A stretch of 64,000 bases of DNA, taken from an uncultured Candidatus Saccharibacteria bacterium (lineage in GTDB: Bacteria > Patescibacteriota > Minisyncoccia > Phycocordibacterales > UBA2100). Both the position numbers and the translations under genes were made by a program. Shown piece by piece: positions 14,883-36,834 of this stretch. Position 1 is the stretch's first letter; the number at the start of each line of letters is the position of its first letter. The stretch covers positions 2,144 to 66,143 of the forward strand of contig CAZPQI010000001.1 of the NCBI GenBank assembly GCA_964589005.1, written 5' to 3'. Below the pieces are notes generated by a model that saw only the letters and a list, made by a program, of their open reading frames with translations, was not told the DNA's origin and did no database searches.

Positions 14883-16064
14883 TTACCGTATTACTTCAAG
14901 TAAGTGCTGTATTTGCTGTTGTTTTAGTGTACTCCCCTGCCCGCTTGTGTCGGCGATTATCCCACTTGCTTCATTCATATGCACTAAAAGCACATTGCCG
15001 GTCATGTTTGCATTGCCAGTGTTATAGGCAGTTTCGCTCACGGCGTTATCAGGCAGTTCTTTGCCAGTTGGTCGCTGTGGCGCCCAAGCAATGGAGTTGT
15101 AAGTGGAGTCGCCAACATCTTTTATGTCGGAAGTGAATGTGCCTGTGTATAACGGTGATTGTTTTTCATAAATATTTGCAATTTCCGTCGCAGACAAAGC
15201 GCGGTTAAAAATTGCGACTTCGTCTATTTCTCCTAACCAATATCTACCCGCAATATTAATTGCGCCAATCCACAAATCAACTGGCTGAACAATATTCCCT
15301 GATGGATTATTGTTTTTAGTGCCAATCAAAAACCCATCAACATATATCTCACTATTTGTACTCCCTGTTCTTTGGAAAACTAAATGATGCCACTGCCCGT
15401 CATTCAAGTTTACTGTTTCACTTTGAAATGATGAACCACCCCAACCAAATATAAGAGTATCCGTTGAGGGCTGATACTGCATATGTTGATTATTAGAAGT
15501 CACACTATACGCATTAATAATACCCTTGTAATTTGAGCTAGTATCGCTAGTTTTTACCCAAACAGAATAGGCAAAGTTTCCAGTACCCCACGCAAATTGG
15601 TCGGTATCAGGTATTGCAACATAATCATCAACTCCATCAAAACTCATTGCTGTATTTAGTTTTCCTGTTGCGTTGTAAGTTACTCCTCCGTTTTGCGTGC
15701 CATCATTACCTTGCCCACTTGTGTCTGAAATTGTTCCACTTGCTTCATTCATATGCATCAAAAGCACATTGCCTGTCATATCTTGCCAGCCGGTTGTTGC
15801 GGCGTTGTCGGGCAATTCCCAAAGTGGGTTTGGCGTGATGTTGGTGCCTTCCACCCAAGAGTTCGCTCCATCCCACTGCGTGTAGCTGTACGCTCCGGCA
15901 TCAAATTCGCTTTGCGTGTCGTCCACCGCCACCGCCGCGTCAGACACATCAGCGCTCATAAGCGTATAAGCCCAATACCCACCGGCAACCAGCGTAAACA
16001 CAACCCAAAGCGTAAGCAAATGCCGTAAGGGCCTAAACTGCGGATGCTTCAAAATTATCTGCAC
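14883..16064 (-). CDS. LamG/concanavalin-A-like lectin domain protein (Laminin_G_3), membrane-anchored; likely 3'-truncated
   Basis: MSFDGVDDYVAIPD...VWVKT...GEIDEVAIFNRALSATEIANIY is the Laminin_G_3 signature. Start proposed at GTG 16064 (RBS-like aaggtggggg upstream, then TM helix); the listed ORF start 16337 reads through non-coding repeats. C-terminus begins a second LamG repeat then stops. Confidence 0.6.
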   Translation of the reverse strand: MQIILKHPQFRPLRHLLTLWVVFTLVAGGYWAYTLMSADVSDAAVAVDDTQSEFDAGAYSYTQWDGANSWVEGTNITPNPLWELPDNAATTGWQDMTGNVLLMHMNEASGTISDTSGQGNDGTQNGGVTYNATGKLNTAMSFDGVDDYVAIPDTDQFAWGTGNFAYSVWVKTSDTSSNYKGIINAYSVTSNNQHMQYQPSTDTLIFGWGGSSFQSETVNLNDGQWHHLVFQRTGSTNSEIYVDGFLIGTKNNNPSGNIVQPVDLWIGAINIAGRYWLGEIDEVAIFNRALSATEIANIYEKQSPLYTGTFTSDIKDVGDSTYNSIAWAPQRPTGKELPDNAVSETAYNTGNANMTGNVLLVHMNEASGIIADTSGQGSTLKQQQIQHLLEVIR

Positions 16065-16094
16065 ATCCCCCCACACCCCCACCTTTTTCTCCAC

Positions 16095-16122
16095 CAATGT
16101 CCGAGGCGACGCCTCGGACACC
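16095..16122. repeat. REP-like 28-bp palindromic element copy R1 (ccaatgtccgaggcgacgcctcggacac)
   Basis: Perfect 10-bp arms gtccgaggcg/cgcctcggac; family has 4 copies clustered around the RAYT gene. Confidence 0.8.
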
Positions 16123-16133
16123 CGATTTGTATC

Positions 16134-16218
16134 AAGCGATTTTACTCTCTCTCTCTCTCTCTCTCGGCTCGCAAAGCTCGCCGAATTAAGATCAGTATAG
16201 TGCTTTTTGTTTTTCATA
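16134..16218 (-). promoter_or_regulatory. module M1: (TC)11/(GA)11 dinucleotide tract embedded in conserved promoter-like sequence (TTGCGA ... (GA)n ... TAAAAT on minus strand)
   Basis: Homologous (~80% id) to module M2 at 17571-17670 but with different repeat number; lies about 70 bp 5' of proposed LamG GTG start. Confidence 0.5.
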
Positions 16219-16279
16219 ATATTTGCAGAAAAGGGGTCAGATACCTTTTTTTCTTGCCCTTGCCCCTCCTTTTCGCGCA

Positions 16280-16307
16280 CCAATGTCCAAGGCGTCGCCT
16301 TGGACAC
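16280..16307. repeat. REP-like palindromic element copy R2 (ccaatgtccaaggcgtcgccttggacac)
   Basis: Same family as R1/R3/R4; perfect palindrome gtccaaggcg/cgccttggac. Confidence 0.8.
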
Positions 16308-16573
16308 GAGCCGTATTGTTGTTGCCGTTACCGCCACTCTTGCTCTTCCGCAAATCTACAATATGCTCATCAATTTTCTCATTTGTTTGCCCACCAAAAG
16401 AATCCCCCCCTATGCGATTAGTATTCGTGTAATTGTTGGAGTTAATATTAGAGTCAGTATTAGAAATGTTTCTACTATATTTTTGTGACTTTCTGTTACG
16501 CAGCATCATGCCTAAATTATACCATTAGCAACGCCAAGAATATTTGCTGGATAGTTGATACCTTTACTAATGG

Positions 16574-17230
16574 TCAAGGAGCCTCCTTGACCATTAAATC
16601 AAGCATTTCTGATAAATCTTCAACATCATTTATTTCAATCGGTAATATCTCTTTGTTTAAAATTAGTGATTCGTCTCGCTTAGTTCCAAAATAATCTCTA
16701 TAACTTGAATATTTATACTCCTTTAGAAATTTAGATACTTTGCTCATGTCAGAAATACCGACTTCTTTCCAATCTGGCTCAACTTGGTCAACAGGGTTCA
16801 TATGAATATATGAAATTAACCATCTAAAGTACCCATCACTATCTACATGCTTTGCGCGAAATGGTCTACACATTAGTGGTCCGGTTCTGTCGTACTTTTT
16901 GTTCATATACATAGAAAACGAAGTGAGTAGTTTCTGCATGAAAGCGGAAATACCTCCCTCTTGTTTTTCGAGCAGAAGGAGATGAAAATGATTCGGCATC
17001 ATTGCATATGCACAGACAGTAACGAGTGTGTCACCCCTGTCCAAAGTGTCCAAGGCGACGCCTCGGACACGAGAGGATTTTTTGGTTGGTTTTGTGCTAT
17101 TGCACAGATACAGCAGTCGCTGATAATGCTTCCAATCGCCCTTACTAAAAAATATATTGCGCTTATCTATACCACGATTGTAAACGTGGTAAAACTCTCC
17201 TTCTGTAAATTCTACTGCTCTCTTTGCCAT
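16574..17230 (-). CDS. REP-associated tyrosine transposase (RAYT; IS200/IS605-like Y1 HUH transposase family)
   Basis: HUH motif MPNHFHLLLL, N-terminal FYHVYNRGIDKRNIFF, C-terminal RPFRAKHVD...YIHMNPV (catalytic Tyr region) align with E. coli RAYT YafM motifs; flanked and interrupted by REP-like palindromes. Confidence 0.8.
   Translation of the reverse strand: MAKRAVEFTEGEFYHVYNRGIDKRNIFFSKGDWKHYQRLLYLCNSTKPTKKSSRVRGVALDTLDRGDTLVTVCAYAMMPNHFHLLLLEKQEGGISAFMQKLLTSFSMYMNKKYDRTGPLMCRPFRAKHVDSDGYFRWLISYIHMNPVDQVEPDWKEVGISDMSKVSKFLKEYKYSSYRDYFGTKRDESLILNKEILPIEINDVEDLSEMLDLMVKEAP
17048..17070. repeat. REP-like palindromic element copy R3, located in-frame inside the RAYT ORF
   Basis: gtccaaggcgacgcctcggacac encodes the RVRGVALDTLD segment between the N-terminal motif and HUH motif of the RAYT. 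Confidence 0.75.
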
Positions 17231-17255
17231 TAATCTTTATTGTAGCATTGCCCCG

Positions 17256-17283
17256 CCAATGTCCAAGGCGTCGCCTTGGGCAC
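17256..17283. repeat. REP-like palindromic element copy R4, 25 bp upstream of RAYT start
   Basis: ccaatgtccaaggcgtcgccttgggcac. Confidence 0.8.
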
Positions 17284-17570
17284 TTGGCTCGGCGTTTGTT
17301 TATCGCCTGTTTTTTTCAGAAGAAATCACACTATCATTGTTTAAATCAACAGGTCTTTTGGTCGCAGTATTTTTGCCCTCACGACTTAAATCAAGCATCT
17401 CGCTCAATCTTTTTTTTGCTTTTTTATTTTCTTTTTTGTTCAACATATTAAAATACAAAAACACGCTTAAAAGCGCGTAAATTCACACATCTTGTTTTTA
17501 AGTGTGTAGTTAGAAGTAAAGGTTTTTGATTTAGAGTAAAATAGTCCCGAAAACAACGAGATAAACTCCG

Positions 17571-17670
<100 letters not shown>

Positions 17671-18116
17671 TTTTTGACAGAATCAATATCTACATTATAC
17701 CAACTTCTGATAAAAATTAGAACGAGTTAAGCAGAACAAGTTTTGCAGCCAAACAATTGGCAAAATGTCATCACTAGCGCCAATTCTGCGAAGTTATGAG
17801 CAGAGAACAAACCAGAAATTTTCTTTTCCTTTTTGAAAAAATTATTAGGGGGCAAAAACAAAGAAACGAAACAATAAAGTAAAGAAAATTTCTGGTTTGG
17901 TTTTGCTGAGCGGAGCGACTTTGTTTGCTTAGGACTGGAAAGAGTTAGCAAACAAGAAGTGCCCTCGTGGTGCGGAGGCGGTGGCGCGGTCGTTCGCGCG
18001 CCCACAGGCGCGCGAGATACAGCACGCGGAGCGTTCCGCTTTGTTAAAGTTACCACGCGCTCGGCGCGTGATTAGCGTTCATCTCGAAAATAGGTTCGGA
18101 TTTGGTCATATAAAGT

Positions 18117-18274
18117 AGCCCGAATAAAACTCGTGTCGTTTTGGGGGAATTTTTGACGCACGGCGCGAAGCGCCGCGTACGGAAACGGGGCATTTTCTTG
18201 GACTTTTTTGTCGTGCAAATGGAGGTTCGATCCGAAGATTTTTCGGAGAGAGGATTTTTTGGAGGGAAGGTCGT
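18117..18274. repeat. IR-L: left copy of a perfect 158-bp inverted repeat flanking serine recombinase 1
   Basis: Exact reverse complement of 19856-20013 (verified base by base at both ends). Confidence 0.9.
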
Positions 18275-18516
18275 GCAAGTTTATATGTGCGCTTGACCCA
18301 CCCACCCGTTCGCGCGCACCAATCCCCACTGTTTTTGAGAGGTATTGTAAAACAGTGGGGATTGCTCCCTCAAAGTGTGTTATATTTCTAGTGCAACCAG
18401 CCGAATTTTTTAAGTCGTGCTCAAAGAGCCGTCTTGGACAGTTCGAATTTATTCGGCTGGTTGCACCAAGGCGGCTTTTTGAGTATTCGCCACATTATCA
18501 ATCTAATTTGTATTAT

Positions 18517-20124
18517 ATGGAACAGAAATATTTTTTGTATGCTCGCAAAAGCACAGATGTCGAGGACAAGCAAGTGCTCTCTATTGAGGCACAACTTGAT
18601 GAGCTACGCGCGGTCGCCAAAAAAGAAAAGCTGGAGATTGCCGATGAATTTGTAGAAAAGAGGACGGCAAAGATGCCAGGGCGAGCTGTGTTTAATGAAA
18701 TGATCGGGAAAATACAGAACGGAGAAGCCCAAGGAATAGTTTGTTGGAAGCTTGATCGCTTGGCGCGCAATCCTGTGGACGGCGGGCAAATAAGTTGGAT
18801 GCTCCAACAAGGTATTATCCAGCACATTCGCGCTCATGACAAAAGCTACTATTCAAATGACAATGTGTTGATGATGTCTGTTGAGTTTGGAATGGCTAAT
18901 CAGTTTATTCGTGATTTAAGCTCAAATGTAAAACGGGGATTGCGAGCGAAAGTAAAGCGCGGAGAATTCCCAAGCACCGCTCCTGTCGGATATTTGAATG
19001 ATGTGCGCAGAAAAACAATTGTCGTTGACAGAAAGAAATCAAAAGTAGTCCGCGCAGCTTTTGAATTGTATTCGCTGGGCAATTCGTGCCTTGAAGATAT
19101 TGCGAACTTTTTTTATGAAAGAGGTGTACGAAGTATATACGGAAACAAATTGCACAAAGACAGAATAAAGTGGATTCTCTCTAATCCTTTTTATTACGGG
19201 CACTTTCGATATGGTGGAGAAATTCACGAGGGCAAACATACTCCGGTTATTGAGAAGCGGCTTTTTGATCAGGTGCAAAAAGTTATGAAAGAAAAAGGAC
19301 ATCCGCAAAAATTGGTAAAAAATCCAAAACCTTTTTGCGGACTTTTGCGATGTGGCACTTGTGAGATGATGATAACAGCAGAAGACAAAGTGAAGCGATG
19401 CAAAAACGGGAATGTGCACAGATATGTCTATTACCACTGCACGAAAAAATCCAAAACAATCAAATGTAAAGAGTCATGTATCAGAGGAGAAGTTTTGACT
19501 GAACAACTTTCAGAAATTCTTTGCGACTATTCCATGCCGTTGTCTTGGATTCAAGAATTTCGATTGTGTATGAGAGAAGATAAGAGAAAAGCAAATCTTG
19601 AATCAGTGAAGATTATTGAGAGTTTAAGAAAAGAAGTTTCGGATATTTCGGAAAAGATACAAAGATTGCTCGATATTTATCTCGCTCAAGATATTGACAG
19701 AGAAACATATCTTAAAGAGCGCTCAAAACTTTTCTCAGAAAAGAAAAGTCTTGAGGAGAAAATATCAAGATTGGAGAGAGATGCCACTGCGTGGCTCGAA
19801 CCTATGCAAGAATGGATTGAAACCGCCTCAACACTGGATAAAATCGGCAAAAGGAACGACCTTCCCTCCAAAAAATCCTCTCTCCGAAAAATCTTCGGAT
19901 CGAACCTCCATTTGCACGACAAAAAAGTCCAAGAAAATGCCCCGTTTCCGTACGCGGCGCTTCGCGCCGTGCGTCAAAAATTCCCCCAAAACGACACGAG
20001 TTTTATTCGGGCTGGCCTCCTCGGGCTAGAACCAAAGTCGGTCAAGCCCTGCAAGGTTATTTCTAACTATTTCAATCTATCAATTCGACGCTCCTCGAGC
20101 ACGTTAAATTTTAAAAAATATTAA
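18517..20124 (+). CDS. large serine recombinase 1 (resolvase/invertase N-domain + recombinase domain + zinc ribbon)
   Basis: Start at ATG 18517 (MEQKYFLYARKSTDVEDKQ... = catalytic Ser motif Y.RKST..Q); recombinase domain and Cys cluster (CGLLRCGTC...C..C). The C-terminal ~85 aa are read through IR-R, so the true stop is uncertain. The listed 18208 start is an artefact of reading IR-L. Confidence 0.8.
   Translation: MEQKYFLYARKSTDVEDKQVLSIEAQLDELRAVAKKEKLEIADEFVEKRTAKMPGRAVFNEMIGKIQNGEAQGIVCWKLDRLARNPVDGGQISWMLQQGIIQHIRAHDKSYYSNDNVLMMSVEFGMANQFIRDLSSNVKRGLRAKVKRGEFPSTAPVGYLNDVRRKTIVVDRKKSKVVRAAFELYSLGNSCLEDIANFFYERGVRSIYGNKLHKDRIKWILSNPFYYGHFRYGGEIHEGKHTPVIEKRLFDQVQKVMKEKGHPQKLVKNPKPFCGLLRCGTCEMMITAEDKVKRCKNGNVHRYVYYHCTKKSKTIKCKESCIRGEVLTEQLSEILCDYSMPLSWIQEFRLCMREDKRKANLESVKIIESLRKEVSDISEKIQRLLDIYLAQDIDRETYLKERSKLFSEKKSLEEKISRLERDATAWLEPMQEWIETASTLDKIGKRNDLPSKKSSLRKIFGSNLHLHDKKVQENAPFPYAALRAVRQKFPQNDTSFIRAGLLGLEPKSVKPCKVISNYFNLSIRRSSSTLNFKKY
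19856..20013. repeat. IR-R: right copy of the 158-bp perfect inverted repeat
   Basis: Reverse complement of 18117-18274. Confidence 0.9.
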
Positions 20125-20666
20125 AAACATTCATCAAGTTGTTCTCTTGTAAGAATCAGAATGTTGTCTGTCTTAAATGTATTTTTACCGACACTAGCTA
20201 AAAACCCTAAGTAATTTCTCAACTTTACGAAAGCCTTAAGTTTCTCTGAAGTCCATGGAATTAAAATTGCGACTCTACCCAAAGCGGACGCATTAACGAA
20301 CCCACCTAGAATATGTTTCCTGCTAACTTTGTTCTCAATCTCTACGCAGAGAAGACAACGAGCATTTTGATTGAAATGTTTCAAGATTGTAAAAAGATGT
20401 TCGTCAATATCTAAATCGAAGGATTTAAGATTTTCGTTATGCTTTTGAATTAGCTTACGAATGAAATCCTCACTGGTTTCTAATAGATTGCTGTATTCTT
20501 CTATATGTTTATTCTCTGTCGCGAACGGGCCAACTGCAGCATCAACTCTCGGAGAGTAAACACTCGAGTCGCCTCTTATTGAAGTCCACTCAATTTCAAC
20601 ATCTTGGTCTGGATAAATTCCTTGTAACTTTCGCTTTAAAAGTGGCTGGTATTCTTTTGGTGTCAT
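20121..20666 (-). CDS. PD-(D/E)xK-like putative nuclease (hypothetical)
   Basis: 181 aa; candidate D (SPRVDAAVGP) and E-x-K (LCVEIENK) arrangement typical of restriction-endonuclease fold; immediately downstream of the 901-aa helicase gene on same strand. Confidence 0.35.
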   Translation of the reverse strand: MTPKEYQPLLKRKLQGIYPDQDVEIEWTSIRGDSSVYSPRVDAAVGPFATENKHIEEYSNLLETSEDFIRKLIQKHNENLKSFDLDIDEHLFTILKHFNQNARCLLCVEIENKVSRKHILGGFVNASALGRVAILIPWTSEKLKAFVKLRNYLGFLASVGKNTFKTDNILILTREQLDECF

Positions 20667-20731
20667 ATTTGGGTGGTTAAACTATTCTTACTTAAAAATA
20701 TCTTAGAAAAGTGACAAAAGTGACACTGGTA

Positions 20732-23437
20732 TCAAAGATTAAACTTTGATGACAACAGCGCTACGTCCTTTCCATTATTCCTTTTCTCCAAGGAACTTAG
20801 GATCTTTTTTTCTGTCTCTGGCGTCCAGTATATTTTCAACTTTTCTCGTGCTCTTGTTATGGCTGTATAGAAAATATTATGTGAGACCATTTCTTCTATT
20901 TCATCTGTAATAACCACTTTAACCGAGTTGTACTCTAAGCCCTGAGCTTTATGGATGGAAACGGCATAAGCAATTTGGAAAGGAACTACTGCATTTGAGG
21001 AAGAATCGTCATCTTCATCAGTACTCCTAAGCCTGTTAACGATAAAGCGAATAGTTGAGTTTTCATTTTCAAGGTTGTCGACTAGTTCAAAGTCATATCT
21101 TTCTGCTTCCCATTCATTTATTGCTCTATCGAGTTCAACATCAAACTGTATTCCGTCTTCCAGAGTCACTATTTGAACTATCTTACCCTTTAAATTGTTG
21201 TAAATAAGGGGCGCAAATCTATCGGATTCATTAAACAATACGGGGTCATTGACTTTATATGTCTGAACGCCCCATTGTTCGGGAGCACTTTCATTACTAC
21301 CCTGCAAAAATTTGTTTATATTATTTATTCCATAAAGTCCGTCATAATTTAGACATAAAATTATTTCGTCAGCTTCCGAGTGCTCAAAAATTGAATCATT
21401 CAAAGTAAATGAATAATCACTTTTGGTAATGTGTTCTAAAATATCTACATCAATATTTCTAACCTTCGTCCACAAATCGAGCAGCTTTGGGTTTTTACTT
21501 CTATAAGGTTTAGTTAATTCAGATACAGAGGTTACTGGAACAAAATCTCGAACCATGCTGAACCAATTTCCAAAACGAATCGATTCTATCTGGAATACAT
21601 CGCCCACTAAAACTAACAACTTGAAAGAAGCTTTGTTTAGTACCTTAAGCATGTCCGCATTGTTGAGCGTACTACACTCGTCGATAACTAATAAGTCATA
21701 CTTTGTATCTTCATTCCTAACAGATAAAAACCTGGTTACTGTCTTGAAGGTAGAACTCCCAACATTTACCCTTCTCCTAAGATTATCAACGGCAGGATTA
21801 GTGTTGGCTAAATAAAGCTTTTCCCTATCGTGAAAGAAATTAGAAATATGGTTTATTAGTGTTGATTTTCCTGTCCCAGCAGAGCCATATACCAACGCCA
21901 CCTCTGATTTTTCAAACATCTGTTTCAGTTTTACCTTTTTCTCATCACAATCGATTTTGTAGGTAGATGATTGTAACCATGAGTCAAAAGACTTTGAGTA
22001 GTTCTTGATACCTTTTAAGGAAAATCCCTTCAATTTTTCAATGATATGGAGAGTGTCTTGTTCATAGCCTTTTATATAGACATGGTCTTTATAGTCTTCT
22101 ATCTTTCGTTGTCCGTGCTTCCAATATAATTTTGCGTTGTATGACCGCATCAGTTCATCAATGTCATCGAAGTTGGTAATATCTTCCCGTGGTGTATAGA
22201 GATTTCCCTTTATTTCAATGTTATTTCTTACCTGTCTTGCGAATAGCTCGTGCTTTCGATCAGTTGGATCTATACAATCGAACAAATCAGAAAGTCTTGG
22301 GTTGTGACCAATTAAAGAAGTATTAAATGGCATTTCATCAAATGGGATGCATCCATAACTAAGTTTTAGACTTGATAATCTTTCGCACTCCCCATGAAAA
22401 TATTGTCGTTTGAGAATTTTATTATTTAGTCTATAAAGCAGGTATCTGATTACATTATTCCCAGGCGCATTATTTTTTGTCAGTTCACGACTTTTATCTA
22501 ACAGGCTGAGGATATGATCCGTTTGCGCTTTTTGAATTATTGCATCTTTAAAACGCTGATAGTAATCATCAGGGAAGTCGATGACTTCAACTAAGTTCGA
22601 TCCGGTCTTTGTTAAAAGTGACATTAGCTCACGGTATTCCTTCGTTCCAGTGCTTATTTTTATGTGCTTACCAAATATGTCGGCAAAATGATCAAGTTCA
22701 CACGGACGAATTGAGACTTCCCAATTATCAATAATTTGGATTGGCATCTCCTTACCCACAACTTCTATAGAGTCATTACTAACGGCAAGCTTTACAGCAT
22801 AATTGGGAGATATATCTAATTTTGTGAAAGCAATAATTCGATCGAATTTACTTGCATTATCAATCGCCGTTGTAAAAGTCACTTCATAATAAACTTCATG
22901 ATTAACGAAAAATGGTTTTATCTTTTGGATGTAATATCTATCCCTATATGTGCTTCTTATTCTTGATGACTCAGACTGATTAATCTTCTCCGTGATTTTT
23001 TCGTAATACGCTTTTAATGCAGGATCAAGTGTTATGGGAAATTTATCAATGTTCTCCAAAAGATCCATACCATATTTACTTTTCATGAAGGATTTTATTT
23101 TGAGCAAATACTCGTAGTACTTCAGCATCAATCTCTCTGAATTCTCCTCACCGAGAGTATAGTGAGAAGCAGAAATCTGCAGAAGTTTATGAAGTCTACT
23201 CAAAAATTTTAGATCCCCTCTTACCTTGATGAAAGTTTCAGCCTTTTTAATATTTTCGTATGTATTTTCAGTGTCTTTACCGGCGCCGTATATTTTTAAT
23301 GAAATATGTTCAACAAAATTTCTGAGTTGAGATAAGAGGTTCTGCGATAGCAAACCTCTTTCAGAGTCATCAAATTTACTGATGTTCTCACATATAACTT
23401 TATTGGTATTCAAAATGTGATCATCAATCTTTCTCAT
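20732..23437 (-). CDS. large protein: ~480-aa N-terminal domain of unknown function + C-terminal SF1 (RecD/Dda-like, AAA_30 + UvrD_C_2) helicase
   Basis: Walker A VALVYGSAGTGKSTLI, Walker B LLVIDECS, LVGDVFQ, and C-terminal SIHKAQGLEY...FYTAITRAR motifs of SF1B helicases; N-terminal half has no recognisable family. Confidence 0.7.
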   Translation of the reverse strand: MRKIDDHILNTNKVICENISKFDDSERGLLSQNLLSQLRNFVEHISLKIYGAGKDTENTYENIKKAETFIKVRGDLKFLSRLHKLLQISASHYTLGEENSERLMLKYYEYLLKIKSFMKSKYGMDLLENIDKFPITLDPALKAYYEKITEKINQSESSRIRSTYRDRYYIQKIKPFFVNHEVYYEVTFTTAIDNASKFDRIIAFTKLDISPNYAVKLAVSNDSIEVVGKEMPIQIIDNWEVSIRPCELDHFADIFGKHIKISTGTKEYRELMSLLTKTGSNLVEVIDFPDDYYQRFKDAIIQKAQTDHILSLLDKSRELTKNNAPGNNVIRYLLYRLNNKILKRQYFHGECERLSSLKLSYGCIPFDEMPFNTSLIGHNPRLSDLFDCIDPTDRKHELFARQVRNNIEIKGNLYTPREDITNFDDIDELMRSYNAKLYWKHGQRKIEDYKDHVYIKGYEQDTLHIIEKLKGFSLKGIKNYSKSFDSWLQSSTYKIDCDEKKVKLKQMFEKSEVALVYGSAGTGKSTLINHISNFFHDREKLYLANTNPAVDNLRRRVNVGSSTFKTVTRFLSVRNEDTKYDLLVIDECSTLNNADMLKVLNKASFKLLVLVGDVFQIESIRFGNWFSMVRDFVPVTSVSELTKPYRSKNPKLLDLWTKVRNIDVDILEHITKSDYSFTLNDSIFEHSEADEIILCLNYDGLYGINNINKFLQGSNESAPEQWGVQTYKVNDPVLFNESDRFAPLIYNNLKGKIVQIVTLEDGIQFDVELDRAINEWEAERYDFELVDNLENENSTIRFIVNRLRSTDEDDDSSSNAVVPFQIAYAVSIHKAQGLEYNSVKVVITDEIEEMVSHNIFYTAITRAREKLKIYWTPETEKKILSSLEKRNNGKDVALLSSKFNL

Positions 23438-27044: not shown

Positions 27045-28373
27045 ATGGAGAACGCGTTAATATCAGTACCAATAAATAACGACATTGAACCTCAAACTAC
27101 AAACATCAAATATTGCTTATACGCCAGAAAATCAACCGAGCAGGATGAGAAACAAGCTCTCTCTATAGAATCTCAAGTGAAAGAGATGTTAGCAATTGCA
27201 GAAAGGGAAAGCCTTGATGTCATAGATATACGAAGAGAATCTCACTCAGCTAAAGACTCAGGGCAACGGCCAGTCTTTAAACAAATTATTGAGGATATTG
27301 AACGGGAGCGATTCAACGCGATCATAACTTGGGCGCCTGATCGTCTAAGCAGGAACGCTGGAGATTTGGGAAGCTTAGTTGATCTTATGGATCAAAAGAA
27401 ACTTCTTACAATTCGCACTTACGGACAAACATTTAGCAACTCTCCAAATGAAAAGTTTTTGTTGATGATTTTATGTAGCCAAGCAAAGTTAGAAAATGAC
27501 AACAAGAGCATAAACGTCAAACGAGGATTACGTGCCAGATGTGAAATGGGGCTGTGGCCAGCTCCTGCTCCTACTGGATACTTAAACGAAAAGAAAACTG
27601 ACAGAAAAGGATATGTGATGATAGACCCTAAGGCAGCTCACATTATTAAACAAATGTTTGAAAAAGTTGCGAATGAAAAATGGAGCGGTAGGAAAATATA
27701 TCATTGGTTAAAGTTTGATCTTAATTTCAAAACCACTACAGGTAATAAGAACCTAACACTCAGTAATGTATTTCTAATTCTAAAAAATACTTTTTACTAC
27801 GGTGAATTTGAGTATCCTAGAGGAGGAGGTGTTTGGTATAAAGGAAAACACGAACCAATTATCACTAAAGAATTATTTGGCCAAGTCCGTCAGGAAATAA
27901 AAACGAATATTGTACGTGTCGAAAGTAAGGAATTTGCTTTCACTAAACTTATGAAATGTGGTCTTTGCGGTTCAGGTATCACAGCCGACGAGAAGTTTAA
28001 AAAATTAAAAAACGGCGGAATCAACAGACATGTCTATTATGGCTGTACGAAAGTGAGAGATAAAAATTGCAAGTGTGGATACATCAACGAAACAGATTTA
28101 ATTAAACAATTTGAAGGACTAATCGATAAGATTGATATAGACAAAACTGGTATCCAGGAGAAGATTAAAGAAGAAGTAACACGATTCAAAAAGTTTCAGC
28201 AATCATTACTTAGCACCAAAGAAAAAATAGTTGTTGCCGATATAGATATACGAAATTACGCAAAGTATGTCCTACAGGAAGGAAAAGACGTCGAGAAACG
28301 AGAATTACTTGGTTGTCTAAAAGGAAAAATTGAATTAAAAAATAAATCAATCATTTTAAATACTAAAGGTTAG
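27045..28373 (+). CDS. large serine recombinase 2
   Basis: YARKSTEQDEKQALSIESQ catalytic motif, recombinase domain, zinc ribbon CGLCGS...C..C; paralog of recombinase 1 (KRGLRA, PAPTGYLN shared). Confidence 0.85.
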   Translation: MENALISVPINNDIEPQTTNIKYCLYARKSTEQDEKQALSIESQVKEMLAIAERESLDVIDIRRESHSAKDSGQRPVFKQIIEDIERERFNAIITWAPDRLSRNAGDLGSLVDLMDQKKLLTIRTYGQTFSNSPNEKFLLMILCSQAKLENDNKSINVKRGLRARCEMGLWPAPAPTGYLNEKKTDRKGYVMIDPKAAHIIKQMFEKVANEKWSGRKIYHWLKFDLNFKTTTGNKNLTLSNVFLILKNTFYYGEFEYPRGGGVWYKGKHEPIITKELFGQVRQEIKTNIVRVESKEFAFTKLMKCGLCGSGITADEKFKKLKNGGINRHVYYGCTKVRDKNCKCGYINETDLIKQFEGLIDKIDIDKTGIQEKIKEEVTRFKKFQQSLLSTKEKIVVADIDIRNYAKYVLQEGKDVEKRELLGCLKGKIELKNKSIILNTKG

Positions 28374-36671: not shown

Positions 36672-36760
36672 TTGCTGCCGGTTTGGGACTCGAACCCTCC
36701 TCGGGCGCACAAGACCCGTCACAAAACGACGGTCTTCGTGCGAAATAACCTATCACGAGG
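36672..36760 (-). other. tRNA-like degenerate element: 15-bp imperfect hairpin plus T-arm-like GGGTTCGAGTCCC motif
   Basis: Canonical T-loop sequence present but T-stem only 3 bp and no acceptor stem can be paired; a possible UUU (Lys) anticodon loop lies in the long hairpin. Not a confident tRNA. Confidence 0.25.
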
Positions 36761-36834
36761 TGGCTGTCGGACTAGGACTCGAACCTAGATAGGCGGCACC
36801 AAAAGCCGCAGTCCTACCATTAGACGATCCGACA
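36761..36834 (-). tRNA. tRNA-Gln (anticodon UUG), CCA encoded
   Basis: Manual fold: acceptor TGTCGGA/TCCGACA, D-stem, anticodon stem GCGGC/GCCGC with loop TTTTGGT, T-arm CTAGG-TTCGAGT-CCTAG, discriminator G, CCA. Confidence 0.8.

Follow-up and report, generated by a model that had tools for sequence, protein, structure and literature searches.

A large serine recombinase gene of a Saccharibacteria bacterium lies between inverted copies of what is probably an attachment-site arm of a tRNA-targeting element

A large serine recombinase (LSR) gene of an uncultured Candidatus Saccharibacteria bacterium is bracketed by a perfect 158-nt inverted repeat. The reading we favour, with a probability of roughly 0.55, is that this repeat represents two copies of one arm (the P' arm I, ~110-170 bp) of the attachment site of an integrative element that is driven by the LSR and targets tRNA genes. 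The DNA analysed, hereafter the window, is a 64,000-nt stretch of contig CAZPQI010000001.1. Its two repeat arms, IR-L (18117-18274) and IR-R (19856-20013), are 100% complementary and enclose 1581 nt, confirming the exact reverse complement reported in the original prediction. Such a repeat far exceeds the chance expectation for 64 kb, and the repeat search found no second comparable one at positions 16000-22500. The identical perfect repeat, oriented as in the window, is present in a JGI metagenome contig from a separate assembly (L001, 8423 nt), which matches window 17069-23124 at 99.65%.

The recombinase gene (18517-20124, plus strand; 535 aa) was delimited from Pfam matches, homologues, their alignment and an AlphaFold2 model; it starts at the ATG at 18517, not at the TTG at 18208 of the mechanical ORF. 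It had been predicted that the ORF reads ~85 codons into IR-R and that the repeats enclose the whole gene. Instead, the ORF spans all of IR-R (~53 codons, aa 447-499) and then runs 37 more codons to the stop at 20124; the repeats therefore enclose not quite all of the ORF, although its entire conserved part does lie between their outer edges. In the alignment, homology to relatives ends at the outer edge of IR-R (...SFIRA), so that residues 1-499 are conserved and residues 500-535 form a non-conserved extension read from the flank. The AlphaFold2 model gives residues 497-535 a pLDDT of ~30 and predicts them to be disordered. An inversion, which had been expected to swap the C-terminal tail, would according to this model alter just the non-conserved, predicted-disordered extension, the conserved tail being inside the repeat.

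That the enzyme is a large serine recombinase, as first proposed, is borne out by a Resolvase catalytic domain (PF00239, E = 1e-19, residues 6-150) with a YARKSTD catalytic serine motif nearly invariant among aligned relatives, and by a Recombinase domain (PF07508, E = 6e-15) together with a zinc ribbon interrupted by a coiled coil. The Zn_ribbon_recom match (PF13408) scores 22.4 bits, slightly below the 25.3-bit cut-off, and is recorded for most homologues; the zinc-ribbon cysteines C274, C279, C282, C308 and C317 are invariant in the alignment, and the model has long helices at 342-446, the coiled-coil region. The search returned 6305 homologues, the best ones from Patescibacteria, and the recombinase belongs to an uncharacterised Patescibacteria LSR clade. 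No recombinase above 30% identity was found in phage and plasmid collections. The NCBIfam IS607 model reached 18.9 bits against a cut-off of 110, so IS607-type elements, first noted for lacking such terminal repeats, are indeed no match, and the named equivalogs XisF, CcrA, CcrB and CcrC were all far under their cut-offs. No candidate for a directionality factor emerged; in relatives, a 68-aa helix-turn-helix gene frequently adjoins the recombinase gene.

In 53 of 80 homologous genome loci, the final 110-175 nt of the recombinase gene recur in inverted form upstream of it (median 157 nt, 90% identity; nine perfect), and most of the loci without it have too little upstream sequence. Judged by this locus comparison, the repeat is a trait of the family. 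Arm identity in most relatives is only 80-93%. Within each locus, the outer ~110 nt of the arms are near-identical and the inner ~50 nt have diverged behind an indel, a pattern that also fits gene conversion, so that perfect identity need not imply the frequent inversion originally suggested. About half of the loci compared carry a frame-breaking insertion of 9-11 nt in IR-L, which recurs at the same motif in many lineages, and a GC palindrome is found at +42 to +45 of arm I in ~34 of 47 loci.

What adjoins the two arms points to an attachment site. In 49 of 64 loci, the outer edge of IR-R lies where a convergent tRNA has its 3' end; these tRNAs are of 10 isotypes, and comparison of the loci places the crossover within the final 3-6 nt of the targeted tRNA. 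IR-L in relatives adjoins a conserved arm, Po, and a GC-rich structured sequence, X; a Po match lies at its outer edge in nearly every repeat-bearing locus that includes the flank. The T-loop-like GGTTCG of Po has its TTC 22 nt from the edge; for the tRNA T-loop this distance is 18 nt. Of the loci with both distances measured, all but two show an offset of exactly 4 bp, the Po motif being the farther from the edge. This offset resembles the known one between attP and attB half-sites of serine integrases; for LI integrase, the zinc-ribbon motif of attB lies 5 bp nearer the centre than that of attP (PMC3783163).

Three kinds of junction, tRNA/I, Po/I and Po/B', occur together in L027, L038, L042 and L068 (partly in L034), where Po/B' is a second, inverted X-Po joined to unrelated DNA. 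The junctions have only a 3-5 nt core in common (GAGC, GAGCA, CAC), so that a test of the four junction types for a short common core was positive for these three. A simple integrated form, tRNA-Ala/I ... X-Po/B' with the common core CCACAA, was found in L077. L036 was set aside as a clean case of this form, since no tRNA stands on its right flank and its upstream Po runs into ~12 nt resembling I. On 72 metagenome contigs, ~45 of 77 Po occurrences are joined to DNA other than I, and these junctions often lead into a terminator-like hairpin or the next tRNA. Comparison of the junctions shows the predicted attP to be X-Po/I and the predicted attB to be the tRNA 3' end with the DNA downstream of it, the attB being read from junctions and not observed empty. 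With the sites thus defined by the three-junction loci, the window can be read likewise: X-Po/IR-L is an intact, inverted attP, and IR-R with its outer flank J is a recombined, attL-like junction. The repeat, rather than a generic transposon end or the homogenised arm of an inverton, would be a duplicated P' arm with the crossover at its outer edge.

In the window, X lies on the plus strand at 17937-18079, where it was recognised by an nhmmer profile and by its hairpins as a GC-rich structured extension of the P arm. The profile, made from the left flanks of 10 relatives and the window's own flank, matches 17937-18128 (E = 5.9e-30), its sole copy in the window. X includes the palindrome CACGCGC-TCG-GCGCGTG (18054-18070), and across loci its hairpins occupy equivalent positions with varying sequence and kept pairing, a covariation judged by eye, without quantification. 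RNAalifold gave no consensus structure for X-Po from 22 sequences because the alignment is too gappy, and X matched no Rfam family. Left of IR-L, no tRNA or known RNA was found by ARAGORN or by Rfam at the gathering threshold, and a permissive E-value Rfam search returned implausible miRNA/lncRNA matches only. Po (18080-18116, plus strand) was identified from the relatives' flanks as a P-type half-site with the T-loop-like motif AAAATAGGTTCGG (18086-18099) and ends at the crossover edge. We also considered Po as an outward or inward promoter; a sigma-70-type scan of 17800-20300 gave no signal above chance anywhere, Po included, and leaves this role unsupported.

IR-L (plus strand) is a non-coding inverted copy of the recombinase 3' end and, in our reading, the P' arm of the inverted attP. 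Within IR-L lie a GC palindrome (18161-18175) and, at 18224-18233, the T-loop-like GGTTCGATCC. A minus-strand ORF (18072-18329) gives IR-L the potential to code for the same 52 aa and then TLYDQIRTYFRDER, a tail that agrees with natural tails of Po-joined homologues, such as TLYDQIRTYFREKN of P0045. The 242-nt spacer U (18275-18516, plus strand), upstream of the recombinase gene, is without cargo genes and contains two perfect 16-bp hairpins (18320-18364 and 18391-18466). IR-R (plus strand), the coding copy of arm I, would be the P' arm of the recombined junction, and J (20014-20056, plus strand) is a degenerate tRNA-end-like arm with B-type spacing. The reverse complement of J ends in ...GGTTCTAGCCCGAGGAGGCC at the junction, and J is not a complete tRNA. 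A J-homologous flank follows the recombinase gene in L002 and L064, the downstream genes of which partly match window 23.8-26.7 kb. J was rejected as the displaced 3' end of the tRNA-Gln at 36761-36834, its acceptor-like bases not being complementary to the 5' strand of that tRNA.

The interval corresponding to U is 126-5528 nt long in relatives and is occupied there by oppositely oriented cargo genes; often these serve anti-phage defence, with Shedu, Thoeris, OLD/Gabija-like, restriction and other defence genes among them. No second X-Po or attR was found across the 64-kb window, including the 18 kb left of the cassette, and the DNA left of X carries host-like genes. With no cargo and no partner attR in the 18 kb to its left, the window cassette is probably a stranded copy.

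The alignment indicates that arm I is under constraint as DNA: synonymous sites show it in IR-R codons 450-464, and third-codon-position entropy is 1.03-1.15 bits over codons 426-475, against 1.22-1.73 bits in the other 25-codon bins; for conserved degenerate codons in those other bins it is 1.45-1.86 bits. Along with these constrained synonymous sites, the conserved arms carry palindromes at about +43 and -65. Canonical serine integrases manage with 40-50 bp sites and no accessory sequence (PMC3783163), whereas here the conserved stretches are 110-170 nt for arm I and ~150-200 nt for X-Po. Because canonical enzymes need so little (PMC3783163), conserved arms of 110-200 bp are left unexplained by canonical site requirements, a point that counts against our reading.

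By comparison of the loci, arm I takes in the final 53 conserved codons of the recombinase gene and has the crossover at its outer edge. Taking these features together, we propose the following course of events. The free element would bear two inverted copies of attP, which would split it into two arcs, one with the recombinase (and any defence cargo) and the I arms, the other a backbone with the X-Po arms. Integration via one attP would leave the other intact and in this way create the inverted repeat around the gene. Cassette orientation may be set by the choice of attP or by later recombination between the two inverted sites, and the likeness of the arms, perfect in this genome, may stem from gene conversion or from recent formation. 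A circle with two attP predicts cassettes between two P-type arms, and such cassettes are found in L058, L103 and probably L113.

Several further points weigh against the proposal. The circular form is deduced from contigs alone, and both the origin of a second, inverted attP and its retention across clades 55-80% identical are unexplained. The window itself has neither a second X-Po nor an attR, the DNA left of X is host-like, and on the right stands a degenerate tRNA-like arm in place of a tRNA. The motif offset is 4 bp and not the published 5 bp, and the proposal does not account for an orientation ratio of ~10:1.

Orientation is where the strongest alternative takes hold. In relatives, the recombinase tail runs into a tRNA in some loci and into the conserved Po in others (into its reverse complement in L017, L082, L084 and L085), and all flank combinations occur: (Po, tRNA), (tRNA, Po), (Po, Po) and (tRNA, tRNA; L081). 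Some 50 loci show one state, and L125 shows the complete flipped arrangement. Tails joined to Po and tails joined to several tRNAs occur together in 6 of 10 clusters at 90% identity, and one Shedu-plus-recombinase cassette is shared by L087 and L088 at 91.5% nucleotide identity, its tail being on Po in one locus and on tRNA-Tyr in the other. Comparison across relatives thus indicates that cassettes exist in both orientations, even where the recombinases are at least 90% identical, as the original prediction had allowed. All of this could reflect a self-inverting switch, in which the recombinase recombines Po/I with tRNA/I, regenerates both sites and flips the cassette to and fro; in relatives, orientation would then govern the expression of the recombinase and of the divergent defence genes. 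The sites are inverted and have identical inner arms, so inversion would regenerate both, and the cargo consists of defence genes, a class often phase-variable. We nevertheless regard such a switch as doubtful. Serine integrases are reported to pair only attP with attB, or attL with attR when a directionality factor is present (PMC3783163); the orientations are strongly biased; the window cassette has no cargo to regulate; and nothing promoter-like rose above chance at its flanks. Metagenome contigs gave 0 matches to the flipped junction of the window (Po end, 158 N, antisense recombinase), only one other contig of this organism being known. The same states are also explicable, without flipping, by alternative use of two attP at integration. 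It is in a similarly tentative way that we suggest that the recombinase joins an intact attP with a tRNA-joined hybrid site, the long structured arms serving as accessory sites; this pairing is one that canonical serine integrases refuse.

It is unlikely that the repeat is a passive duplication, that is, an old inverted copy of the gene's 3' end kept alike by RecA-dependent gene conversion and flipped occasionally by homologous recombination. The near-identical outer ~110 nt, with divergence behind what would be a conversion-blocking indel, are consistent with it, as is the frame shift of IR-L in about half of the loci compared, where IR-L is thus not a coding tail. However, the repeat is kept in 53 of 80 loci, in clades only 55-80% identical, and has the conserved Po and X beside it almost without exception; the 9-11 nt insertion recurs at one and the same motif in many lineages; and the repeat edges coincide exactly with the att crossover. 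Together, these features argue for a maintained site and not for debris.

We consider it very improbable that I...I is the mobile unit itself, an IS-like serine transposon that forms a circle with a palindromic I/I joint and inserts either way between a tRNA end and Po. Serine recombinases do move small elements, as TnpX (Tn4451), TndX (Tn5397) and the IS607 family do, the element ends being inverted-repeat halves of the joint site. The cassette is found with every flank combination and near-identical recombinases sit at different tRNAs, both of which a transposon would produce. Yet excision between inverted ends requires a palindromic crossover dinucleotide, and the cores CACC, CTCC and TTCC have none, which rules this route out for the groups with those cores. 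IR-L is almost never found on native tRNA-downstream DNA, Po being nearly always present; neither an empty Po/tRNA site nor an I/I joint was seen among the contigs; and simple integrated forms with a single I are known (L077). Serine transposases have short, imperfect ends and a dinucleotide core and choose their targets loosely, whereas here the repeats are long, include coding sequence and meet tRNA ends; the low IS607 score, the single copy in the window and the specific Po and tRNA flanks all set the cassette apart from an IS.

An assembly artefact, either a fold-back chimera or a mis-joined repeat, is hardly credible and already contradicted by the evidence: many public contigs do end at or just outside these repeats, and short reads cannot orient perfect repeats longer than the assembly k-mer, but the second assembly shows the same structure, the arms differ by substitutions and the insertion in most relatives, which makes IR-L a physically separate copy, and the arrangement, for which the original prediction had allowed an artefact if relatives lacked it, is carried by those 53 loci and by records deposited as complete chromosomes (OY970354.1, OY970382.1).

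Phage and element serine integrases are among the closest known systems. phiC31, Bxb1, A118/LI and SPbeta have the same domain set (catalytic, recombinase, and zinc ribbon with a long coiled-coil insertion) and follow the same attP/attB logic with a short common core, the half-turn motif offset between P- and B-type half-sites being 5 bp for LI and 4 bp here. In phage and element integrases the conserved arms are ~25 bp, against 110-200 bp here. Other differences are that attP extends over the final 53 codons of the integrase gene itself, that the 3' ends of many different tRNAs serve as target, and that a second, inverted attP brackets the gene. A recombinase gene enclosed by repeats is not unprecedented, and less unusual than first supposed, since the Salmonella hin gene sits inside its own invertible segment. 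Hin, Gin, Cin and Pin are likewise serine recombinases with a segment bounded by inverted repeats, but these enzymes are small (~190 aa), have a C-terminal helix-turn-helix, and work with 26-bp sites and an enhancer bound by Fis. Here the enzyme is a 535-aa LSR, the arms measure 158 nt in the window (110-170 bp in the family), and the sites look like attP and attL where the Hin/Gin type has two equivalent ones.

SSV1-type archaeal tyrosine integrases also have attP within their own integrase gene and a tRNA gene as target, and integration splits that gene; here the conserved protein is left whole, and an inverted repeat surrounds its gene. Tycheposons and related tRNA-targeting islands are similar in being cargo islands at tRNA genes, and in a minority of tycheposons and related cryptic elements the recombinase encoded is an LSR (10.1101/2020.12.28.424599). 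The SSV1-type elements and tycheposons mostly use tyrosine recombinases and long identity segments in the tRNA, whereas the crossover here is at its very 3' end. In the literature searched, we found no description of a recombinase bracketed by duplicated att arms.

If correct, these results define, from sequence alone, attachment sites for a very large uncharacterised clade of serine integrases with thousands of homologues, the target of which would be the 3' ends of many tRNAs, read via a T-loop-like motif. Integrases with a near-universal natural target and mapped attP/attB arms would be of direct interest as genome-engineering tools, and the repeats are a place where contigs of Patescibacteria assemblies recurrently break. 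The architecture differs from the textbook picture of a minimal site with no accessory DNA in that an att arm lies inside the enzyme's coding sequence, a second attP is present in inverted form and the arms are hundreds of bases long, which raises a testable question about site pairing and directionality. Should the pairing of attP with a hybrid site prove true, near-universal tRNA features, the T-loop and 3' end, would be recognised as the target, and the cassettes would be a natural flip-flop or cassette-exchange device by which anti-phage defence genes are turned over or phase-varied at Patescibacteria tRNA loci. Given the defence cargo found in relatives, these cassettes seem to be a main means by which bacteria with tiny genomes turn over their defence genes.

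The two arms of the inverted repeat, IR-L (18117-18274) and IR-R (19856-20013), are 158 nt long, lie 1581 nt apart and are 100% complementary, one being the exact reverse complement of the other, as the original prediction stated. L001, a JGI metagenome contig of 8423 nt from a separate assembly, is 99.65% identical to positions 17069-23124 with a single 21-nt gap, and it contains the perfect repeat in unchanged orientation. The gene at 18517 (ATG) to 20124 (stop) codes for a large serine recombinase (LSR) of 535 aa with Resolvase, Recombinase and Zn_ribbon_recom domains, which confirms the predicted enzyme; it is not fully enclosed, however, as codons 447-499 form IR-R and the reading frame goes on for 37 codons past the repeat. 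Between IR-L and the gene, the window's cassette (the segment bounded by the arms and carrying the recombinase gene) contains only a 242-nt spacer, with two 16-bp hairpins.

Homologous loci, 80 in all, were taken from species-representative genomes. In 53 of them the gene's final 43-178 nt (median 157 nt) recur in inverted form 126-5528 nt upstream of it, the arms having a median identity of 90% and being perfect in nine loci; of the 27 loci without the repeat, 15 offer under 2.2 kb of sequence upstream. The possibility that relatives lack an orthologous arrangement, raised originally as a sign of artefact, is refuted by these loci. Since the repeat is a family trait and recurs in L001, it is not an assembly artefact, an explanation also ruled out by two loci in records deposited as complete chromosomes and by the divergence of the arms, which in most loci differ by substitutions and an indel. 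Many public contigs stop within the repeat, or outside IR-L at a distance of about one assembly k-mer (L003, L005-L007, L010, L014, L015, L020, L026, L061-L067, L074, L083, L086), and L065 starts and ends exactly with the repeat, its terminal inverted repeats measuring 141 nt. Patescibacteria assemblies break systematically at such units.

Enough downstream sequence was available for 64 loci, and in 49 of them the outer edge of IR-R coincides with the end of a convergent tRNA; ten isotypes are represented, with Gln, Asn and Thr prevailing. Outside IR-L lies Po, a conserved motif of about 35 nt with a near-constant link to the repeat (gaAAATAGGTTCGrnnnnnnnnnTAnAnnn, ending at the junction), and immediately beyond it X, a GC-rich region of 150-250 nt. 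X-Po at 17937-18116 (X, 17937-18079) is the sole copy within the 64-kb window. In the equivalents examined (L009-L079, L017, L082-L085), the hairpins of X vary in sequence between loci while pairing is kept, covariation being judged by eye (CCGAGGTTTTGCGAA...TTCGCAAAACCGAG in L072 versus CCGAGGAAAAGCGGAA...TTCCGCTTTTCCGAG in L076); a long-range stem, CGCCCCGCCGC...GCGGCGGGGCG, is another example. X matched no Rfam family and may serve as an accessory DNA site or be a novel RNA.

The junctions reveal how these parts are joined. L077 is a simple integrated element which, in tRNA orientation, reads tRNA-Ala joined to the repeat arm (arm I), antisense recombinase gene, cargo, and X-Po joined to unrelated DNA, both junctions having only CCACAA in common. 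In L027, L038, L042 and L068 (L034 in part), a second, near-identical X-Po lies inverted 3.3-5.3 kb further upstream and abuts unrelated DNA, sharing only GAGC, GAGCA or CAC with the Po-I and tRNA-I junctions of the same locus. When metagenome contigs were scanned with one Po variant, 72 contigs with 77 Po occurrences were obtained, and in about 45 of the 77 Po was joined to sequence other than arm I, frequently entering a terminator-like hairpin or another tRNA 30-70 nt off. These junctions lead us to assign, by comparative sequence analysis of assembled contigs, on which our conclusions are based, putative attP as X-Po joined to I, attB as the tRNA 3' end joined to downstream DNA (B'), attL as tRNA joined to I, and attR as X-Po joined to B'. 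The comparison shows the predicted crossover to fall within the tRNA's last few bases, that is, at the outer edge of the repeat, and the repeat to be a putative duplicated P' arm, with tRNA 3' ends as the target. In the window, the left site is by this assignment an intact attP, inverted, and the right site a recombined junction.

The spacing of the half-sites was also compared. From the repeat edge to the TTC the distance is 22 nt in Po (21, 20 or 19 in some groups) and 18 nt in the tRNA T-loop (17, 16 or 15); in the loci with both distances measured, the two differ by exactly 4, apart from two exceptions. The motif recognised by the zinc ribbon of LI integrase is present in attP and attB half-sites alike and lies 5 bp nearer the centre in attB (PMC3783163). 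Judged by the TTC offset, which resembles this shift, Po behaves as a P-type half-site does, and the tRNA T-arm as a B-type one.

In length, arm I far exceeds a canonical LSR half-site. Within one locus the outer ~110 nt of its copies are near-identical and the inner ~50 nt divergent, and an insertion of 9-11 nt breaks the frame of IR-L in roughly half of the compared loci, each time at the same position within the FGSN codons; the reverse complement of this site, AGGTTCGAKCC (AGGTTCGAnCC), resembles the tRNA T-loop and the Po motif. At 19865-19910 (codons 450-464), two A-rich direct repeats (CTCC[A/G]AAAAATC) and, after them, TTCGGnTCGAACC are kept in all homologues, even at synonymous positions. 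Third-codon entropy is 1.09-1.15 bits over codons 426-475 versus 1.22-1.73 in other 25-codon bins, and at conserved degenerate codons 1.03 versus 1.45-1.86. About 34 of 47 loci have a GC palindrome, CGCGGCGCGrAGCGCCGCG (coding for YAALRAAR), centred on or near +42 to +45 relative to the edge, and 12 have a similar one in X at -63 to -70, the window among them (18161-18175 in arm I, 18054-18070 in X). The conserved third positions and the palindromes point to DNA-level information in arm I besides its coding role.

A total of 6305 LSR homologues were detected, the best (55-83% identity) from Patescibacteria, including Minisyncoccia, Paceibacterota and Zambryskibacteria. Phage and plasmid collections held no recombinase above 30% identity, and the LSR scores far under the cut-offs of the XisF, CcrA/B/C and IS607 equivalog models, the last in keeping with the original prediction, in which IS607 elements were said to lack such terminal repeats. 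In a 24-member alignment, the repeat encodes a conserved tail, NDLPSKKSSLQKIFGSNLxLHDKKVQEN..YAALRAARQNF...SFIRA, and conservation ends exactly at the outer edge of IR-R, past which the frame of most homologues enters a tRNA in reverse complement (G[FI]EPTTxxLTG..STTELPRN or GFEPR...VLPLDDP, for example). At least 8 of the best 120 homologues read the reverse complement of Po, such as protein P0045 (...SFIRATLYDQIRTYFREKN); the window IR-L would yield the tail SFIRATLYDQIRTYFRDER. In 6 of 10 clusters at 90% identity, tRNA-joined and Po-joined members occur together, with as many as five different tRNA tails.

The loci also differ in their flanks. L125 is a full mirror image of the window unit (X-Po joined to I, antisense recombinase gene, reverse-complement I joined to tRNA-Thr; repeat of 111 nt, 99%), and L083 has its second copy at the contig start. 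P-type arms flank both sides in L058, L103 and probably L113, and tRNA ends do so in L081. L087 and L088 contain the same Shedu-plus-recombinase cassette (91.5% nucleotide identity), Po-joined in one and tRNA-Tyr-joined in the other. L017, L082, L084 and L085 are Po-joined and look like plain attP forms, a second I copy being absent from their available sequence. As judged from these contigs, the cassette is shown to exist in both orientations, with all flank combinations; its expected occurrence in either orientation is thus borne out across relatives.

The interval between IR-L and the recombinase gene contains 0-6 genes in relatives, almost all of them encoded on the opposite strand, and a 68-aa helix-turn-helix gene is often divergent from the recombinase gene. 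All 10 cargo genes tested match PADLOC defence families (AriA/OLD/GajA-like ATPases, type II restriction enzymes, PDC-M04A, RmrA, ThsB, SduA, Ppl, E1-E2). Defence cargo occurs in L016, L026, L027, L040, L043, L065-L067, L074, L083 (KAP NTPase and helix-turn-helix protein), L086 (two ThsB proteins and helix-turn-helix protein), L087 and L088.

To the left of X are host-like genes (Dsb proteins, P-type ATPase, MsrAB). An IS200-like Y1 transposase (PF01797) at 16574-17230, minus strand, together with four copies of the 24-nt GC-rich palindrome TGTCCAAGGCGTCGCCTTGGACAC (16098-16121, 16284-16307, 17046-17069, 17260-17283), looks like a RAYT (REP-associated tyrosine transposase) with its REP sequences; L001 begins right at one such palindrome. 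A direct repeat of ~90 nt (16136-16225 and 17570-17676) opens in each copy with GCGATTTTA, followed by a (CT)n microsatellite. The outer flank of IR-R, common to L002 and L064, is a degenerate tRNA-end-like arm with B-type spacing rather than a tRNA, its reverse complement reading GGTTCTAGCCCGAGGAGGCC up to the junction. Directly after the recombinase gene, a low-GC stretch runs from 20014 to ~36700 (GC 0.34-0.38 versus 0.40-0.44), ending near a tRNA-Gln (36761-36834). It codes for a second, unrelated LSR (27045-28373, 442 aa) with no inverted repeat around its gene, two N6/N4 DNA methylases, an SF1 helicase (901 aa), ResIII/SNF2 (SF2) helicases, a TnsA-like endonuclease domain and SSB; its 23.8-26.7 kb part is also found, conserved, behind the homologous recombinase genes of L002 and L064. 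The 11-nt sequence CCTCCTCGGGC is directly repeated, at ~20016 and 36701. At 36677-36712, ~50 nt downstream of tRNA-Gln, lies a fragment like a tRNA 3' part (minus strand ...GCCCGAGGAGGGTTCGAGTCCCAAACCGGCA), possibly left over from an att site of the low-GC island. No attR was found within the 64-kb window, and the unit is probably stranded.

Taking these forms into consideration, we infer that the free element would carry two inverted attP copies, which fits both the loci with Po at both ends and those where inverted X-Po copies bracket the backbone. Integration via one attP would leave the other inside the element, generating the inverted repeat, and cassette orientation would be set by the choice of attP or by later recombination between the inverted sites. 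The main rival, an attractive one, is an active flip-flop in which the LSR would recombine attP with attL; however, this is contrary to published site-pairing rules. A flipped-junction search for the window unit gave 0 matches in metagenome contigs, among which just one other contig of this organism is known, and no promoter signal above chance was found in 17800-20300. A purely passive duplication of the repeat leaves the near-constant Po link and the recurrent insertion unaccounted for, and an IS-like model for the cassette requires a palindromic crossover dinucleotide, which several groups do not have.

The window unit would work like serine-integrase att systems, its protein being an LSR, while departing from the "minimal site" that defines that family and in the extra inverted attP around the gene. 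The sole likeness to Hin-type invertons is a serine recombinase gene inside a segment bounded by inverted repeats, and no description of this architecture was found in the literature searched. In an AlphaFold2 model of the LSR (mean pLDDT 66.8), the tail at residues 447-496 is of moderate confidence and pLDDT is ~30 over residues 497-535. The C-terminal swap originally predicted upon inversion therefore stands for the extension but not for the conserved tail, which ends at the outer edge of IR-R: under either mechanism, inversion would alter only a non-conserved extension of the protein, modelled as disordered.
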